Assembly: GCA_034189385.1 (NCBI GenBank) | Contig: JAXHVD010000002.1 | Span: 160,001 to 224,000 of the forward strand | Direction: 5' to 3' | Length of the DNA stretch: 64,000 nt | Source of the DNA: Thermodesulfobacteriota bacterium | Lineage (GTDB): Bacteria; Desulfobacterota; Desulfobacteria; Desulfobacterales; C00003060 | Part shown: positions 24,001 to 33,000 of the stretch, piece by piece | Layout of the letters: the number at the start of each line of letters is the position of its first letter | Position numbering within the stretch: position 1 is the first letter of the stretch | Position numbers: made by a program

Positions 24001-27000
24001 ACAGTTTGGAAGAGCTTGCATTCCTTGGGTGTCTTAACACCACGGAGGATGTCGCCGCATTTGCACCCGGGCGGCTCAGGGCAGTCCGGAACCTCCAGGT
24101 CGAACAGGGCATCTGCATCAAAGCTCCTATAGGCCTCTCGCAGGGCAAGTCCACTCTTCGGAATGACTCCAAGACCTCGCCACGGTGCGTCACAAGGCTC
24201 AAAGACCCGGAACAGGGTTTTCATGGCATTCACATTGCCCTCAGGTGCTACTGCCCGTCGGTATTGAATTTCCACTCGGGCTTCGCCCGCTTCTATTTGG
24301 CTTACCAGCATAGAGATTCCCTGCAAGATGTCCAGAGGTTCAAAGCCCACAACAACACAGGGGGTATGATAGTTGGCGGCCACCAGCTCATAGGAGGCCG
24401 TTCCAATAACCGTAGTCACATGCCCGGGGCAGATAAACCCGCTGACATCCAGCTCCCCTCCCGAAAGGAGGGCATCCATGGCCGGCGGAAGGAGTTTGTG
24501 AGACGAGAGGACCGAAAAGTTCTTGATCCCTTCCACTTCGGCCGCCACTACAGCAGCAGCAATGGTGGGAGCCGTTGTCTCAAATCCCACTCCGAGAAAT
24601 ACCACTTTTTTTTCGGGGTGTTGCCGGGCAATCTCCAGGGCATCCATCGTCGAATAGACCATGCGCACGTCAGCACCCAAACTCTTTTCATGTTGCAATG
24701 ACGACTTAGACCCAGGCACCCGGATCATGTCCCCGAAGGTCGTCACAATCACACCCGGTATCTGCGCGAGTTTGAGCGCTTTATCGATGTCGCGGGCAGC
24801 GGTGACGCACACCGGACAACCAGGGCCTGAGATCAGAGCCACGTGTTCAGGCAGGACCTCACGGATACCGTATTTGAAGATGGCCACCGTGTGCGTGCCG
24901 CAAACTTCCATGAACCGGGCCGGCTTTTGGGACGTGGCCTTAATACGGTCCGCCATCTTGAGGGCCACAGAGGCATCCCGGTATTCACTCAGGTATTTCA
25001 TCAATCACCCCCATCTCTTTCCAAAGCTCCAGGGTGATTCGAGCTTCCTCGGGATCAATCCTATGAAGAGCAAAACCAGCATGAATGATCACATAGTCTC
25101 CAACCTCGGGCCTTTCATCCACAATGTCCAGACGGGCATCTTTCGTGACACCAGCCAGTTCGGCGCGGATGGTGTCCCCCTCCACTTCAATCACTTTCAT
25201 CGGTGCTGCCACGCACATGAGATCATCCCTCCTACCTTATTTGCGAGAGTTTTGCATCACTCTTCCGGAACCTGTTATTATTGTACGACGCACCAGAGCA
25301 AGTGTCAAATGAGTTTATGCACCCAGATCTAGCGTCGTGTTAAAAAGTAGAGTGCCCGCCTTCAAGCCATTTTCCGGGCTCCGTGAGCCTTTCCAGCACG
25401 TCAGCTTCGCTCCGCTGAATCATGCACGAAGTGGCTCTTTTCAAGTCGTCAGGCGCAACCGTTAGCGCTATAACTCGGGCCTACGGCCTCAAATCCCGAC
25501 GTGTCGGGACTGCACAGTGACTAATGACACTTCTGGTTCATGACACTAGCGGCCGCTGACAATGGGTTAGGGGAAGCCGCCCCGAGGACTTGCCCCGCCC
25601 AGTAGTTATCCGGTGGTAAAATCAGGCCTTTTAGGGCGCAAAACCGGGACAACTCCCTATTGTATCATCGTTTAGTATTCGCTAATAATCGGTCATGCTC
25701 TGAACCCTAGGTTGTATCGTGTGATCTTCGGTCATGATCCGAACGTATCTTGAGCTCTTTGAACCAACTCTGCCGACCCGTTTACAGGAGTTCTGGGGTG
25801 TCTTGTATGGCATCAGGCAATACCAGGGAGTACGTATTTCAAATTGAAAACATACCTAGAGAAGCAAAAAAGTTTTGGTAAGACAGGTTGCAACAGGAGT
25901 CATGTAGGATGAGGGAATGGGAAATTGTACAAAATAACGCACTGTTATCAATAGAAAAATCATGGCGGGCCCCGGGCTCGCGGCACGTCCCGGTGTGGGG
26001 TTGCTATTCTGTGTTCTTTGAGATTAGGATCAAATTTGATTGGAAATAGAATCGGTGCGAATCCATTTTGCTCACTCCGTGAGCATGTTAGCAGCGTCTG
26101 CTTAACTCTGGTAGGTCACGAAAAGTCCGGCCTCGTGGCCCTACAAAAGTCAGCGACTCGCAACGCTTCAGTCGAGCAGGCGTCTTAGTCTTAAAAGGGT
26201 AGCATGTTTTTCGCAATTGGCCGTGGCTTTTGTGCTGTTGCTATTTTCTTAATGAAAGGGGGTGAAACACCAAGAGATGGAAAGAGCCTTTCCTGTGTGC
26301 CCTTGTGCACAAAGGAAGGACCCTTGTAACCTTTAGACATAGTTTGACAAAGGGGGGAGACACAACAATGAATATTACCAGAAGGCAATTTTTGCACTAC
26401 TGCACTGCCTCTGCCGCCGCCCTGGGCCTCAGCCAGATGGATCTCTTGAAGCTGGAAAAGGCCTTGGCGACACCGCAGACAGGCTGCGGCAGCCCGACAC
26501 CTTCGGTGATCTGGATGACTGGCCAGGCATGCTCCGGATGCCAGACATCGCTGCTGAACCGGGTGGTGGATACTGGTGGCACGGGCTACTATGATGCAGA
26601 TTTGTTGAATGCCCTTACCGGCGGCGCATTTCCTCAAGGGGTCCCCAGCGATCCTATTCCGGAATTGAACGTGGTAAACGACGTGGCGGATCTGCTGGTG
26701 GGCGATGCCGTTGGCACCCTGGTGCCGGCCATCACCCCAAGGGGCCTCACGTGGGCGCCATTTTCGAATGGTTACGTCACGCTGGAGTGGCTGACCACGG
26801 TGAACGCCGGCGCCGGCGACATTAATGTCCAGCACATCAAGAACATCGTCAATACCGGCGGTTTTTTTCTGTTGCTGGACGGCTCGATTCCTGTGTTAGA
26901 TGAGAATTTCTGTCTCGTCTTTGATAACGAGGTGAATGACGGTGTGGGAGGGACCAAGATCATTTCCAGCCTTCCGCTCGGGCCGATTACCCTGTCTGAT

Positions 27001-30000: not shown

Positions 30001-33000
30001 GAAAAGGGGCCATTTTATGGCCCCTTTTCTATTTGATCTCACAAAGCTGGCGCGACCCGCCCGTTGAGTCCTCGCAAGCCATATCGCCATACCCATTGGA
30101 GACAGCCTGGTGTCCCAAGGAATGACTTACATAATTGGCGAGGTCGCCAAGAACGCCGGGGGGGAATATCGTAAATCCGAAATTCGAAAATCGAAGCACG
30201 AAACAAATTCGAATGACCAGAATTCCAATGAACGAAAAACTTCACAAACGTTTGAGGACATGATAATATTTAAATTTCTGTCATTGTTTCGGATTTCGTG
30301 CTTCGAGTTTAATGTCTTGATGACTCTCCGCAGATCATGGATTACTTCCACGATACTGTTATGACGATGCGTGCGTTTTGGCGGGGAAACTGGTATACTA
30401 TTAATTTTATACTTGGAACGAATCCCCGATGAACAAGGAGGCAATGAGTGGAGAGTGATAAGCCTATACTGGTTTTGGGCGTGGGCAACCTGCTGCTGAA
30501 AGACGAAGGGGTGGGCGTCCACGTGGCCCGAAAACTCATGGAGATGGACCTGCCGTCCCATGTGGAGGTCCTGGATGGCGGCACAGGCGGCTTTGATCTG
30601 CTGGATGAGCTCGAAGGGCGCAAAAAGGTGATCGTTGTGGATACGGCGCAGGCGGGAAAGCCTGCCGGGACCATGTATCGCATGACCACAGAGGACATTG
30701 AAAAGACGGAAAAGGCCCGCATCTCTCTCCATGAGATTGACATGACCGATCTGTTGAAGCTGGCCGACCTGTTCAAGATTGAAAAGCCAGAGATCGTGAT
30801 CATCGGCATTGAACCCAAGGACATGGAGAGCGCCAGCACGGAGCTTTCTCCGGAGATCGAGGCCCTCATTCCCAAGGTGATCGACGTTGTGCTCAAGGAA
30901 ATAGGGGTAGATGAGTAGCACAAGTTAGCGCCTCACGGGTTGAAAAGAGGCGCGCCCCCTTATCAACCGTTAGAAATAACACCTAAAAGTGTGCTGGGGT
31001 TGCTAGAAAACGGAAGAACCCTGGTTTGAACCTTTCTGATGCAATGGGAGCCTCGGGAGTATGAAATCCGCTTCTCTTCGGCCTCCAATGCCTTTAGTAG
31101 CTGTGCGAAAATCGATGAGATCGCAAAAAGCACATTTTGCTCGCTCCGTGAGCCTTTTGGGCGCACCCGTAATGTTCGGCTAAAATGCTAAAACTCTCCG
31201 CCGCGGCGGATCAAACAGTTAGCATTTCTTAACGCCAAACATCCCAAGTGCTCTTCTCCCAAAATGCTCAATGTCGTTCGCAAAAGACTTTTTACGAGTT
31301 CATCAAAGATTGGAGGTAGGAATGGCTGTAGGCCTTCGTTCAGCGAATTTCCCCATCCCTCTTTTGCCAAATCCGGGGGGTACAAGTGTTGACAGACCTA
31401 CTATGAGTGGAAACGGGGGGTGGGACAGGTGAGTAAGTAGTTTTCCCGCCCAGAAACCGGGTATTTTCTGGGCCAGGATAGGTGATTTCCGCAATTGCGT
31501 CCTCGTACGGTTCTATGGTTCTATAATGATGGGACAGGGGCGCGAAGCGGGGCCGAGTTCGGTTATCAAAGGAGAAGCCAATGATTTTGTTGAGGCGCAT
31601 CTTCAGTAATAGGGGAATCATCAGGTCAAAATTGGCCTGGTTGCTTGTGGTGTTGTGTGTGGTGACCGTTCTTGTTCTTGTGAGATGGCCCAAGGAAACA
31701 AGAAAGGAATCCATAAAAACTGCATCAGTTGAAGAAGCCCAAGAAGAGGTTGTTGCTAAAGTCGCTGTGGAGGAACAAGAAACACTGCGAGAGGATCCGT
31801 TACCTGAGAAGTGGCCACAGAAAGAACCCGAAGAAGTAGAAATGGATGTGGTAATGACTTTACAAGGAGTTGTAACAAACAGTGATCCTTGCATTCAGCT
31901 CCTTACTGTGGAGGGCTTTGATTTTGATACGGGACCTCTTGACGTGAGCGGTATTCGGGCCGGCGATGTCGTGAAAGCCCACTATGTTGAGAAAAGGCTA
32001 GGTCGGCGAAAGACCAATGTCTTGAAGTCGGTGGAATTCATTGCTGCTTCAGAGCAGAGTACTGCCCAGAGGGTCATACCCCAACGTGAAGAAGCGCCAT
32101 TCAGAGCCGTGGCGGAACAAGAAGAAAATGAGGAATTCATGGAAGAAGAACCGCTACCCGAACCAGAGAAAACACTGGCAACGAGGGAACTCGCCGGGAA
32201 AGAACGATTTAATGGGCAGCATAAAGAAATAGCGGGGCCGGAATCCACTCAAGAGGGACGGCCTGAGGGAGAGAAGGAATTCGCTGAAGCTGAAGAAGAA
32301 ATGTTAGAGGAGGAAGAGCAGGAAACAGACGTCACAAACACCATGGCAGGCCGGGTGACCGCTTGTGACCATTGTTTTCAGCTGATTACGGTAGGGGGCC
32401 TCGACTTCGACGGGGGGCGCCTTGACGTAAGCGGCATTCGGCCCGGCGATTATGTGGAAATAGCATATACAGAAAAGCCGTCTGGCAAGGTGATAAAATC
32501 TATTGTGGTCATTGAAAGTAACCATTGAGCTCACCCCCAAACTCGTCGTACTTATCTAAAACCAACCTAGCAGTCCTTTTGGATTAGTAGAAGTCCCACG
32601 TAAAAATCAGGTCTTTCCAACTGCGAAATCCGTAATTCCCTGAATTGTTTCTTGGGAGCATCCGGGCTAAAAGCTTAAAAGGCTAGAAAAGTGCGCTGAA
32701 TCGGCGCCTTGGCCTGTGGTTTTAATGCTCCGCGGTGTGAGTTGCGGAGGCAGCTGATGGGGTTAAACCTAACCAACCGGAATCGCTGAACGCAGAGGGA
32801 ATATCCCCAATGCCCATATCCAGCAACTGGAAGAAGCATCTTTCGGTTCTTTTGCTCACGTTGACCGTGTTCGTCTTTGTGGGTGGTCGTACTCTCCTAC
32901 TGGCCGACGAGAACGATGCCCCCCACCAGACCCATCTGACCCTTGCCAGGGGCCCTGGCCTTGGAACAATTTGTACGCCTTGCCACACTGCCTCTCCTGG

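Follow-up and report, generated by a model that had tools for sequence, protein, structure and literature searches.

The window analysed here, a stretch of 64,000 nucleotides from a Thermodesulfobacteriota bacterium (positions 160,001 to 224,000 of contig JAXHVD010000002.1), carries on its forward strand the genes for the small and large subunits of a [NiFe] hydrogenase and for a hydrogenase maturation endopeptidase. The small subunit (26368..27603, 411 aa; Pfam Oxidored_q6 and NiFe_hyd_SSU_C) bears the twin-arginine signal MNITRRQFL, scoring 18.6 bits against a cut-off of 16.7 with the TAT signal model, and is of a long form, with an insert of ~70 aa (residues 67-136) relative to [NiFeSe] small subunits. 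Its top PDB match is 2wpn_A (E 2.8e-50; other [NiFe] small subunits, 1e-24), and its top NCBIfam match, the NiFeSe small subunit NF045520, reaches 198 bits, under the cut-off of 470. The large-subunit gene (27619..29958, forward strand; Pfam NiFeSe_Hases, E 1.2e-83) is preceded by the ribosome-binding site AAAGGAGG, encodes 779 aa when two TGA codons are read through, and closes with ...IHSFDPCCACTVHLMNPKK... ahead of a TAG stop. An intrinsic-terminator-like hairpin of 14 pairs with a T run is found 42 nt past that stop (30000..30030, forward strand), followed by the endopeptidase gene (30448..30918, forward strand; HycI/HybD type, 156 aa; Pfam HycI, 1.1e-30), the product of which scores 147.8 bits on TIGR00072, above the cut-off, with NiFeSe_H2_mat as its best NCBIfam match. 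In the loci of 16 relatives, an endopeptidase homologue is encoded 3' of the large-subunit gene. These profile matches agree with the earlier note, which had placed a Tat-signal small subunit of this length and a HycI-type protease beside the large subunit. Further maturation genes identified by Pfam lie upstream, namely a second HycI-type protease (14776-15252, reverse strand), hypE (15459-16469), hypA (16700-17041), hypB (17326-17997), hypF (17966-20290), hypD (23916-25004, reverse strand) and hypC (24985-25218, reverse strand).

On retranslation of 27619-29958 the frame is interrupted only at codons 61 and 64, by TGA in each case (...IITPRT-U-GV-U-PITHGSASH...), and the C-terminal Ni-binding motif is all-cysteine, DPCCACTVH (residues 753-761; 29875..29901, forward strand), just as had been claimed before. 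In [NiFe] maturation the endopeptidase cleaves after the motif histidine, and the 18 aa past His761 (29902..29955, forward strand) are the expected substrate. Codon 61 (UGA1, 27799..27801) and codon 64 (UGA2, 27808..27810, context UGAC), both on the forward strand, align with the first and second cysteines of RxCGxCxxxH in solved enzymes; from the D. gigas and DvMF structures, we take the first to be a terminal Ni ligand and the second to bridge Ni and Fe. The accessible text of Takano 2026 (PMC13582414) assigns the N-terminal pair in the same way, in line with what the earlier note had proposed for the two UGAs.

The protein is 176-295 aa longer than the matched solved large subunits (484-603 aa), so that the previously noted excess of ~180-280 aa stands as an observation, with its range revised. 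Its AlphaFold2 model (pLDDT 80.8, pTM 0.88) has 1cc1_L and 3ze7_B as top fold matches (Foldseek; TM 0.82-0.83 on target, E 4e-32), and ~275 extra residues are spread over five insertion sites compared to the Hys [NiFeSe] enzymes. The catalytic framework is intact, all 40 sequences compared having E13, H68, R675, C755, C758 and H761 unchanged.

Distribution of the paired UGA codons

A search of 401 Desulfobacterales genomes with the read-through protein, the TGAs being read from the DNA, reproduced the earlier observation of the same TGA pair in four other genomes of the genus (4/12): G119 (70% identity), G165, G356 (42%) and G335 (40%). G119 also holds a Cys-type paralogue (57% identity). Genome contigs showed U-x-x-U in 5/14 loci; on metagenome contigs, the 80 loci kept from 470 comprised 16 with U-x-x-U, one with R-x-x-U, three long-form CxxC and 60 CxxC of ordinary size. 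Altogether, genomes and metagenomes yielded 22 distinct sequences with U-x-x-U, all within one long-form clade (640-857 aa), in which they fall into three subclades; protein identity to the 779-aa protein goes down to 39%. At the level of sequence, retention of both TGAs across these 22 is far more than chance. A TGA is present at UGA2 in 23/23 sequences with any TGA and at UGA1 in 22/23, the exception (L070) having AGA (Arg) in its place. The tree shows at least five alternations between the Sec-Sec and the Cys-Cys form, and a mixed Sec/Cys (single-Sec) form was found in none of the 23 sequences.

That the gene is broken, or that the TGAs are assembly errors, might be read from the way gene callers split the large-subunit gene and from the database entries, most of which are without the N-terminus: among relatives at ≥40% identity, 61/67 begin past the motif, the truncation to be expected from gene callers, and the 6/67 spanning the motif region all have CGVC. 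However, the same TGA pair recurs in 22 distinct sequences from independent assemblies, the 779 codons hold no further stop, the protein parts upstream and downstream are conserved with invariant catalytic residues, and neither the maturation protease nor the hyp genes have been lost. A broken gene or a faulty assembly thus retains next to no probability and is in practice already refuted.

Candidate SECIS hairpin and selenocysteine machinery

A candidate SECIS apical hairpin, AUGGCUC-GGC-GAGCCAU, occupies 27821..27837 of the forward strand (loop 27828-27830). Its stem begins 19 nt past UGA1 and 10 nt past UGA2, and its loop is 26 nt from UGA1 and 17 nt from UGA2. The segment 27799-27860 folds with an MFE of -25.4 kcal/mol (z -3.16), and 0/200 shuffles were as stable; the stem reported earlier at ~20 nt past the first UGA, with the same energy and a z of -2.2, is thereby recovered. 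Each of the distinct U-type sequences (22/22) has a perfectly paired stem whose loop begins with G (GGC, GGCC or GUC), at 26-32 nt after UGA1 and with dG from -5.1 to -9.5 kcal/mol (n=22). Among 48 distinct Cys-type sequences the median hairpin energy is 0, only two reach -5.1 kcal/mol, and a hairpin as stable as -8 kcal/mol is found in none. The U-type hairpins fall into three sequence classes, one of them with compensatory changes. In class A the hairpin is invariant in 14 sequences and hence gives no covariation of its own; each of its six codons is without synonymous change, whereas the conserved flanking residues use 2-5 codons. Pairing holds in 60/60 cells of class C, where two pairs have exchanged both bases and one G-U has become A-U. 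No covariation was seen in the lower stem of the predicted SECIS.

The source genome's four other SECIS elements have loop distances of 16, 20, 22 and 27 nt, the last in an HdrA/MvhD gene, and both 17 and 26 nt fall within this range. Two points count against the proposal: in E. coli, UGA-SECIS spacing is reported to be strict, and we know of no hydrogenase for which experiments have demonstrated that one bacterial SECIS can serve a pair of UGAs spaced 9 nt apart. Given that the hairpin lies 19 nt past UGA1 and 10 nt past UGA2, it should stay folded outside the ribosome with either codon in the A site. Both UGAs would then be recoded by SelB/Sec-tRNASec recruited to one 17-nt hairpin, used twice in succession. 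The earlier proposal of one SECIS hairpin for both UGAs gains from its conservation, its covariation and distances inside the genome's own 16-27 nt.

The same spacings bear on a reading in which UGA2 alone is decoded as Sec, with UGA1 passed by near-cognate suppression or acting as a leaky attenuator and so reducing the yield; such an enzyme would contain a single, bridging Se, and its residue 61 would be non-standard or mixed. The UGA2-loop distance is close to classical E. coli-like spacing, compared to the 26 nt from UGA1, the Arg-containing L070 keeps UGA2, and N-terminal CXXU, with Sec at the second position only, is the commonest Group 4 type (27/47) in the available part of Takano 2026 (PMC13582414). 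Yet the codon-61 TGA is kept throughout the three subclades save in that one sequence, and 26 nt lies within the SECIS range of the source genome, where the HdrA/MvhD spacing is 27 nt. Moreover, the terminal Ni ligand is invariant in the family, and a mixed residue at 61 should therefore be selected against. We regard decoding of UGA2 alone as highly improbable.

Recoding of both UGAs as Sec can draw on Sec machinery that is complete in the source genome: one tRNA-Sec (C31:4024-4121, G73; ARAGORN, Rfam 72.2 bits), selA (612 bits), selB (370 bits) and selD (389 bits), which itself carries one TGA. No second tRNA-Sec was found in the source genome, as already reported, and the nine sub-threshold Rfam matches are all ordinary Ser, Leu, Tyr or Arg tRNAs. 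At least three further UGA genes have SECIS-like hairpins, encoding two HdrA-like proteins and one pyridine-nucleotide disulfide oxidoreductase. TGA is the commonest stop of the genome's long ORFs (696/1750), so UGA recoding is local.

One or both UGAs could instead be read as Cys, through a tRNA-ReC-type tRNA-Cys delivered by SelB at the same hairpin or through Cys-tRNASec when selenium is scarce, in which case the finished enzyme would, in at least some conditions, be a plain all-Cys [NiFe] hydrogenase. A tRNA-ReC-like tRNA-Cys(GCA) of 92 nt, carrying U73 and a long extra arm and scoring 50 bits against the Rfam tRNA-Sec model, is encoded by G165, a genome that shares the U-x-x-U gene; tRNA-ReC-like tRNAs are given for ~56% of UXXU genomes vs ~2.3% of other Sec-type genomes (Takano 2026, PMC13582414, text available in part). 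By contrast, none was found in G119, G356 or G335, nor in the source genome, which showed one 75-nt tRNA-Cys and no blastn match to the G165 tRNA; absence from the source genome is unproven, since it is only 90% complete and its assembly is without tRNA-Trp and tRNA-Ile. For Cys, moreover, TGT or TGC would suffice, as in the Cys-type sisters, and TGA plus hairpin is nonetheless kept over three deep subclades. Cys insertion therefore appears unlikely.

Proposed enzyme and electron partner

We consider it probable that the locus encodes a soluble, Tat-exported, heterodimeric long-form Group-1-type [NiFe] hydrogenase in which both N-terminal Ni ligands are Sec, with one hairpin recoding both UGAs. 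Judged from the gene, the product is very probably an enzyme with two selenium ligands: Sec61 would be a terminal Ni ligand and Sec64 the Ni-Fe bridge, with Cys755 and Cys758 as the other two ligands. By analogy to known maturation, assembly of the NiFe(CO)(CN)2 site would fall to the upstream-encoded Hyp proteins, and removal of the 18-aa C-terminal tail to the endopeptidase encoded downstream. The enzyme presumably works in the uptake direction, and electrons would pass along the small subunit's three FeS clusters to an acceptor in the periplasm, most likely a member of the heptahaem cytochrome family that travels with the operon in relatives.

The candidate partner in the window is a 792-aa c-type cytochrome (35876..38254, forward strand) with seven CxxCH at residues 97-384 and a ~400-aa C-terminal domain of no known family; a paralogue (42995..45319, forward strand; 774 aa, 49% identity) also has seven CxxCH. 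In nine relatives (L043, L044, L045, L047, L058, L060, L062, L069 and L076), the gene immediately 5' of the small-subunit gene, in the same orientation, encodes a homologue of the 792-aa protein, and this synteny makes the heptahaem family the likeliest electron partner. For the earlier suggestion that the hydrogenase feeds large multihaem cytochromes, the link thus points to the 792-aa protein and not to the 976-aa one, and, formerly one of adjacency only, it is now stronger. A strong terminator follows the large-subunit gene here.

Comparison with known systems

The closest solved relatives are the periplasmic Group 1a Hys [NiFeSe] hydrogenases of Desulfomicrobium baculatum (1CC1/4KL8) and Desulfovibrio vulgaris Hildenborough (2WPN/3ZE7), which share with the present enzyme the N-W-C fourth cysteine of the medial cluster, a Tat signal, a dedicated endopeptidase and the lack of both a membrane anchor and a gene for cytochrome b. 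The single Sec of Hys occupies the first cysteine position of the C-terminal motif, where the present enzyme has Cys755, both its predicted Sec being N-terminal. The subunits are also larger here (779 aa vs ~485-500 aa; 411 aa vs 283-317 aa), identity is only 22-23%, and scores are far under the HysA and HysB cut-offs (236 vs 780; 198 vs 470).

Sec at the same two ligand positions of a Group 1 enzyme was engineered in E. coli Hyd-1 (C76U, C79U; Evans et al. 2021, PMC8020662, as far as available). These variants are active, with lower apparent KM for H2, but show only 3% and 13% of the native H2-oxidation rate and, having lost O2 tolerance, are nearly inactive at 10% O2, which counts against the proposed double-Sec enzyme; each, however, changes one residue only, in an enzyme that is natively O2-tolerant, and was obtained by UAG/EF-Tu recoding, whereas here both Sec would sit in a natural anaerobe scaffold.

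In the accessible text of Takano 2026 (Front Microbiol, PMC13582414), U-x-x-U is predicted only for Group 4 hydrogenases, so the new hydrogenase type claimed in the earlier note is new for Group 1, the motif itself having been published for Group 4 in September 2026. The Group 4 UXXU proteins likewise have two UGAs at both N-terminal CXXC cysteines, one SECIS further 3' whose loop has G as its first or second base, and Sec-type and Cys-type copies in one genome, and they too are described in silico only. They belong to membrane-bound energy-converting complexes, as opposed to a Tat-exported two-subunit enzyme of Group-1 type, and Group 4 also includes CXXU (27) and UXXC (4), with no single-Sec counterpart in our family. 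According to the same source, the Sec of Group 1 and Group 3 enzymes is C-terminal, the exceptions being two sequences of Group 1 and one of Group 3 with N-terminal CXXU; the Group 1 cases, listed by Baltazar et al. 2011 as cited there, also have Sec at the bridging position, but one Sec and not two. For hydrogenases, the available portion of an AEM 2026 review (PMC13188914) gives UxxC only. The other bacterial UxxU proteins it lists as predicted, a Prx-like oxidoreductase, an FmdB-family protein and a putative mercuric-reductase-type metal-binding protein, have two Sec three residues apart and hence two UGAs upstream of one SECIS, as here. Those are small thiol- or metal-binding proteins, whereas in the present case the pair would ligate the metal cluster of a hydrogenase.

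Paired TGA codons in the large-subunit gene

The large-subunit gene (27619-29958, +) encodes 779 residues on read-through and holds exactly two in-frame stops, both TGA: UGA1 at nt 27799-27801 (+, codon 61) and UGA2 at nt 27808-27810 (+, codon 64), in the residue context IITPRT-U-GV-U-PITHGSASH. The frame ends on SFDPCCACTVH, followed by 18 residues and a TAG. The read-through product matches NiFeSe_Hases (PF00374) of Pfam at E 1.2e-83 (282 bits against a cut-off of 25.8), and alignments with solved large subunits place both TGAs exactly on the two cysteines of R-x-C-G-x-C-x3-H. 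The motif R-T-U-G-V-U-P-I-T-H exists only on condition that each TGA is decoded, as Sec or as Cys. The gene shows in-frame UGA where its homologues have Cys. Residue 755, in the C-terminal motif DPCCAC, is a Cys encoded by an ordinary codon (TGC/TGT). Translation bore out every checked detail of what an earlier note had claimed for this sequence, namely 779 residues, two TGAs and no other stop, the N-terminal motif and an all-Cys C-terminus.

The protein is long. Among PDB chains, 64 large subunits were matched at E<=1e-3, with Group 1 enzymes best; the matched solved chains have 484-603 residues, which makes the window subunit 176-295 residues longer, so that the excess over solved Group 1 enzymes claimed before (180-280) stands with its figure amended. 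The roughly 275 additional residues are divided among five insertion sites (~85-118, 157-214, 250-432, 485-616 and within 616-773) and are not a single added domain. An AlphaFold2 model of the subunit, made from a 40-row alignment, has a pLDDT of 80.8 and a pTM of 0.88. As a separate observation, the Sec-type sequences of hairpin class A carry D-x-C-C-A-C-T-V-H (29875-29901 in the window; P0004-P0070 among the relatives' large subunits), hence one Cys more, adjacent to the first C-terminal ligand. In the Cys-type sisters of these sequences the motif reads D-x-C-L-[AS]-C, and classes B and C do not follow this pattern.

Across 401 genomes of the order, long relatives are confined to the genus of the window, where four of the 12 other genomes (G119, G165, G356, G335) have them, all four with both TGAs; G119 carries a Cys-type paralogue of 748 aa and 57% identity beside its Sec-type copy. 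The earlier report of the same TGA pair in four other genomes of the genus, and of a stop-free paralogue in one of them, was thereby reproduced. With one genome per species scanned, 14 loci were obtained: five with U-x-x-U, seven CxxC of ordinary size, and two CxxC of the long form, one of which comes from a Thermodesulfovibrionales MAG. From 470 metagenome candidates 80 were kept, comprising 16 with U-x-x-U (U-A-V-U and U-S-V-U variants among them), one with R-x-x-U, three long-form CxxC and 60 ordinary-size CxxC. The R-x-x-U locus, L070 of class B, has AGA (Arg) in place of UGA1 and retains UGA2, the hairpin and an intact frame of 670 residues; its Arg codon may stem from a sequencing variant or from decay of the gene, or mark a genuine form with three ligands. 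In a set of 5.8 billion proteins, 67 relatives were found at >=40% identity. The six that cover the motif region all read CGVC, and none of the other 61 begins before query residue 76. Such truncation is expected where a gene caller resumes behind the TGAs, although some of the 61 are contig fragments. Because these 61 of 67 do not include the motif-bearing N-terminus, surveys of called proteins miss or misjudge the clade.

A hairpin downstream of both codons

A perfect stem with a G-first loop is present in 22 of 22 distinct U-type sequences, 26-32 nt after UGA1 and 17-23 nt after UGA2, and it falls into three sequence classes that match the three subclades of the large-subunit tree: class A, AUGGCUC-GGC-GAGCCAU (window 27821-27837); class B, UUGGC-GGCC-GCCAA; and class C, GCGCAUC-GUC-GAUGUGC with three compensated variants. 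Across the 22 sequences the stability of the best hairpin ranges from -5.1 to -9.5 kcal/mol; of 48 distinct Cys-type sequences fitting the motif pattern, whose median is 0, two attain -5.1 and not one is as stable as -8 kcal/mol. No hairpin occupies the UGA-equivalent place in the three Cys relatives of the long form. Since six codons of the hairpin are each represented by a single codon across the 14 class A sequences while neighbouring conserved residues use 2-5, the class A hairpin is, as judged from codon choice, under selection at the level of RNA. In class C, 60 of 60 cells are paired, with two pairs changed on both sides and one changed from G-U to A-U; shuffles were as good in 5 of 500 cases and slid controls were 23-57% paired. 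This covariation, drawn from five sequences, goes in the right direction and lends modest support to the structure. The fold of -25.4 kcal/mol noted earlier was reproduced for 27799-27860, with a z of -3.16 and none of 200 shuffles as stable. Its lower stem, formed by the UGA region with 27842-27856, has 83% of cells paired in the 14 class A sequences, a value equalled by shuffles, and shows no both-side change; lacking covariation, it speaks neither for nor against the structure, and the apical hairpin alone was counted. An Rfam scan of 26000-31500 at E<=10 returned no SECIS or other credible family. Matches at 29950-30100 belong to a terminator and not to an RNA family.

The window's genome (G000; 4.13 Mb in 64 contigs, 90% complete) contains the complete machinery for selenocysteine: one tRNA-Sec (98 nt, UCA anticodon, G73), selA (612 bits), selB (370 bits) and selD (389 bits), the last of which is itself broken by one TGA. 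The tRNA-Sec is single, as had been noted; matches below the threshold are all Ser, Leu, Tyr or Arg tRNAs. TGA is the commonest stop of long ORFs (696 of 1750), hence the organism uses the standard genetic code, and recoding is local. A codon-usage scan gave 70 candidates for coding sequence flanking a TGA on both sides, and the best G-loop hairpins were found in three of them, in each of which TGA replaces a redox Cys: two HdrA-like proteins, one of the two fused to MvhD (C23:185623-188859, -, loop GGUCA 20 nt after the UGA; C4:13640-16027, -, loop GGUC at 27 nt), and a pyridine-nucleotide disulfide oxidoreductase (C63:37923-39335, -, loop GUC at 22 nt). In selD (C29:10803-11726, +) the loop CGGGA follows at 16 nt.

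The hydrogenase loop lies 26 nt from UGA1 and 17 nt from UGA2, both distances within the SECIS range that the organism's other selenoprotein genes define. The stem starts 10 nt after UGA2, so that, given the footprint of the ribosome, the hairpin should stay folded with either codon in the A site. That a single bacterial SECIS serves two UGAs in hydrogenases is a prediction, for which this gene offers a clean test case. One SECIS for both UGAs is likewise proposed for Group 4 enzymes in the available text of Takano et al. 2026 (PMC13582414), and UxxU is described for three small bacterial selenoprotein families in the part consulted of PMC13188914.

Insertion of cysteine at the same codons is the alternative to be weighed. 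Takano et al. 2026 (PMC13582414), in the available text, find tRNA-ReC-like tRNAs enriched in UXXU genomes, and the same tRNAs, which may put Cys at a SECIS-linked UGA, were therefore sought here. G000 has one tRNA-Cys, an ordinary one of 75 nt. In G165 a tRNA-Cys(GCA) at L157:281-372 (-) is 92 nt in length, with a long extra arm, U73 and 50 bits on the Rfam tRNA-Sec model, and is ReC-like; none such was found in G119, G356 or G335, and blastn detected no counterpart in G000, whose 90% complete assembly is without some tRNAs. By their tRNA genes, one genome in five (G165) would be equipped to insert Cys at UGAs linked to a SECIS. A further class of matches proved spurious: second hits that pass the tRNA-Sec cut-off of Rfam in the four relatives (L152-L155, from G335, G165, G119 and G356; 49-50 bits on RF01852, over the 47-bit gathering score) are ordinary 77-nt tRNA-Trp(CCA), a false positive to beware of in tRNA-Sec counts.

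Sec/Cys alternation and a candidate electron partner

The large-subunit tree (51 rows by 571 columns; one duplicate and all rows shorter than 560 aa left out, the two Sec positions masked as X) shows the long-form clade as one branch of 34 rows with support 99 and three subclades, sister to sequences of ~470-500 aa and not nested among them. Six changes between U-x-x-U and C-x-x-C are needed on it, five of them forced by starred branches. A tree with all Sec sequences together is rejected (AU p 2.6e-51), for a group that was named only after the tree was seen. Of the 23 sequences that have a TGA at either codon, 22 have it at the two together and a mix of Sec with Cys does not occur, the sole mixed case being L070 with its Arg first; in Group 4, by contrast, CXXU is the commonest form according to the available text of Takano et al. 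2026 (PMC13582414). The pairing may have its cause in chemistry (two Se wanted together), in the decoding mechanism or in exchange between paralogues.

The surroundings of the operon bear on the question of its electron partner. The set of hyp genes is complete, with hypA, B, C, D, E and F lying at 14776-25218 beside a second protease. A terminator of 14 pairs (30000-30030) follows the large-subunit stop, so the protease and cytochrome genes downstream of it are probably separate transcripts in the window. A heptahaem cytochrome of 792 aa, with a C-terminal domain of ~400 aa that belongs to no known family, is encoded ~6 kb downstream (35876-38254), and a second copy of 49% identity ~13 kb downstream (42995-45319). 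Nine relatives, which between them represent the three subclades (L043, L044, L045, L047, L058, L060, L062, L069 and L076, of 32 loci, many with too little flank to judge), have a homologue of the 792-aa protein immediately upstream of the gene for the small subunit and in the same orientation; in G356 the homologue lies downstream on the other strand. This synteny, kept in relatives, points to the heptahaem family as the candidate electron partner, rather than to the neighbouring 976-aa, 13-haem protein. The link to downstream cytochromes proposed earlier is thereby strengthened for the 792-aa family but not for the 976-aa protein, of which no homologue was found in the relatives' flanks, as short as 2.5-3 kb; nor was one found in these flanks for the 315-aa ORF (31581-32528) or the 84-aa ORF (30110-30364). 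The C-terminal domain of the 792-aa cytochrome has no PDB or Pfam match; a weak IPT/TIG lead (0.82) was all that the ESM Atlas yielded.

Other genes of the window may be recorded here. A 1616-aa protein (51108-55958, +) carries 21 repeats of the MopE type, which are putatively copper-binding (Pfam E 5.9e-227). Two pairs of PAS histidine kinase and LuxR-type regulator, with a third lone regulator, lie upstream of the hyp genes (5785-13623, +), and a further kinase-regulator pair lies between the two heptahaem cytochrome genes (41088-42577, +); these genes possibly control expression of the hydrogenase and of the cytochromes. Pieces 90-100% alike to parts of the large-subunit gene, including the UGA bin, occur in three metatranscriptome runs from wetlands (X4, X6, X7; shares 0.07-0.13); they are relatives' contigs from RNA libraries possibly holding DNA and make no statement on expression of the window gene. 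The DNA run X1 is non-independent, being probably the source sample.

Taken together, these observations would accommodate a bold reading, which as a whole we hold to be rather unlikely: a natural Group 1 [NiFeSe2] site in which two selenols, as an obligate pair, tune a strictly anaerobic hydrogenase of very high affinity (or a reversible one), which a distal cluster with only Cys ligands would connect to a dedicated heptahaem cytochrome with an Ig domain, the two forming the H2-to-extracellular-electron-transfer module of sediment sulfate reducers, with one SECIS programming two UGAs 9 nt apart. The obligate pair enters this reading because a Sec/Cys mix was never seen despite at least five switches of state.

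Relation to known hydrogenases

The small subunit (26368-27603, +; 411 aa) has a twin-arginine signal (RRQFL; 18.6 bits on the TAT model against 16.7) and matches Oxidored_q6 and NiFe_hyd_SSU_C of Pfam. A HycI/HybD-type endopeptidase (30448-30918, +) is encoded 490 nt downstream of the large subunit and is kept in relatives; both neighbours had been noted correctly. With DPCCACTVH, an 18-aa tail and a dedicated endopeptidase, the large subunit has the C-terminal features of the Group 1 type. The best NCBIfam models for large subunit, small subunit and protease are those of the [NiFeSe] Hys enzymes, all far under cut-off (NF045518, 235.9 against 780; NF045520, 198.3 against 470; NF045519, 138.7 against 190; HysA, HysB and protease models). 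The small subunit also matches [NiFeSe] small subunits (1e-43 to 3e-50) better than other [NiFe] small subunits (1e-24). Its N-W-C369 aligns with N-W-C of 2wpn_A and 4kl8_S, and 11 small subunits of the clade retain it. We take this residue to be the fourth Cys of the medial cluster, giving three [4Fe-4S] clusters with an all-[4Fe-4S] medial one. At residues 311-321, the distal-cluster H-x-x-C-P of [NiFeSe] enzymes aligns with C-x6-C in the window, and 11 clade small subunits (L043-L076), Sec-type and Cys-type alike, have C-x-x-C-P there; the distal cluster, the exit point for electrons, may thus be ligated by Cys throughout.

Among known H2 catalysts, the [NiFeSe] hydrogenases rank first in activity and in robustness to O2, a behaviour credited to one Sec at one special position. 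In the present enzyme, to judge from its motifs, Se seems placed at two ligands of the other side, one terminal and one bridging, and the special position is left as Cys. For E. coli Hyd-1, the available text of Evans et al. 2021 (PMC8020662) gives 3% and 13% of the native rate for C76U and C79U, with a lower apparent KM for H2 and near inactivity at 10% O2. By analogy one may speculate that such behaviour fits an enzyme of strictly anoxic, low-H2 sediments. Periplasmic hydrogenases of three Seep-SRB1a species are weakly expressed according to the available text of Murali 2023 (PMC10553843), in which selenocysteine is not mentioned, and a full-text search for Seep-SRB1a, hydrogenase and selenocysteine in combination found no literature. 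The UXXU hydrogenases in print are the in silico predictions of Takano et al. 2026 (PMC13582414), in the available text confined to Group 4; there, Groups 1 and 3 carry Sec C-terminally, barring three N-terminal CXXU sequences attributed to Baltazar 2011. Full-text literature searches found no published description of a Group 1 U-x-x-U hydrogenase. The two-TGA feature is real and conserved and, as far as these searches reach, unpublished for Group 1. It is experimentally tractable: Se would have been introduced several times into a periplasmic enzyme that is soluble and has two subunits, and whose purification, crystallisation or use on an electrode is far easier than that of Group 4 membrane complexes. 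The natural Cys-type sisters (57% identity; in G119 one of them occurs beside a Sec-type copy) are a ready-made comparison for the role of the two Se.

Against known systems, the enzyme is a separate long-form clade of Group-1-type [NiFe] hydrogenases. Its fold is nearest to the [NiFeSe] enzymes, the model of the large subunit superposing best on 1cc1_L and the D. vulgaris [NiFeSe] chains (TM 0.82-0.83 on target, 22-23% identity). Hys, however, has Sec at the first C-terminal Cys (DPUxxC) where the window has Cys755, and the enzyme is therefore not filed as Hys-type [NiFeSe]. With the Group 4 UXXU enzymes of Takano et al. it has in common both N-terminal Cys as UGA and one downstream SECIS; it differs from them in that the operon has no genes for antiporter-like or membrane subunits, the small subunit carries a Tat signal, and the best matches are periplasmic enzymes of Group 1.
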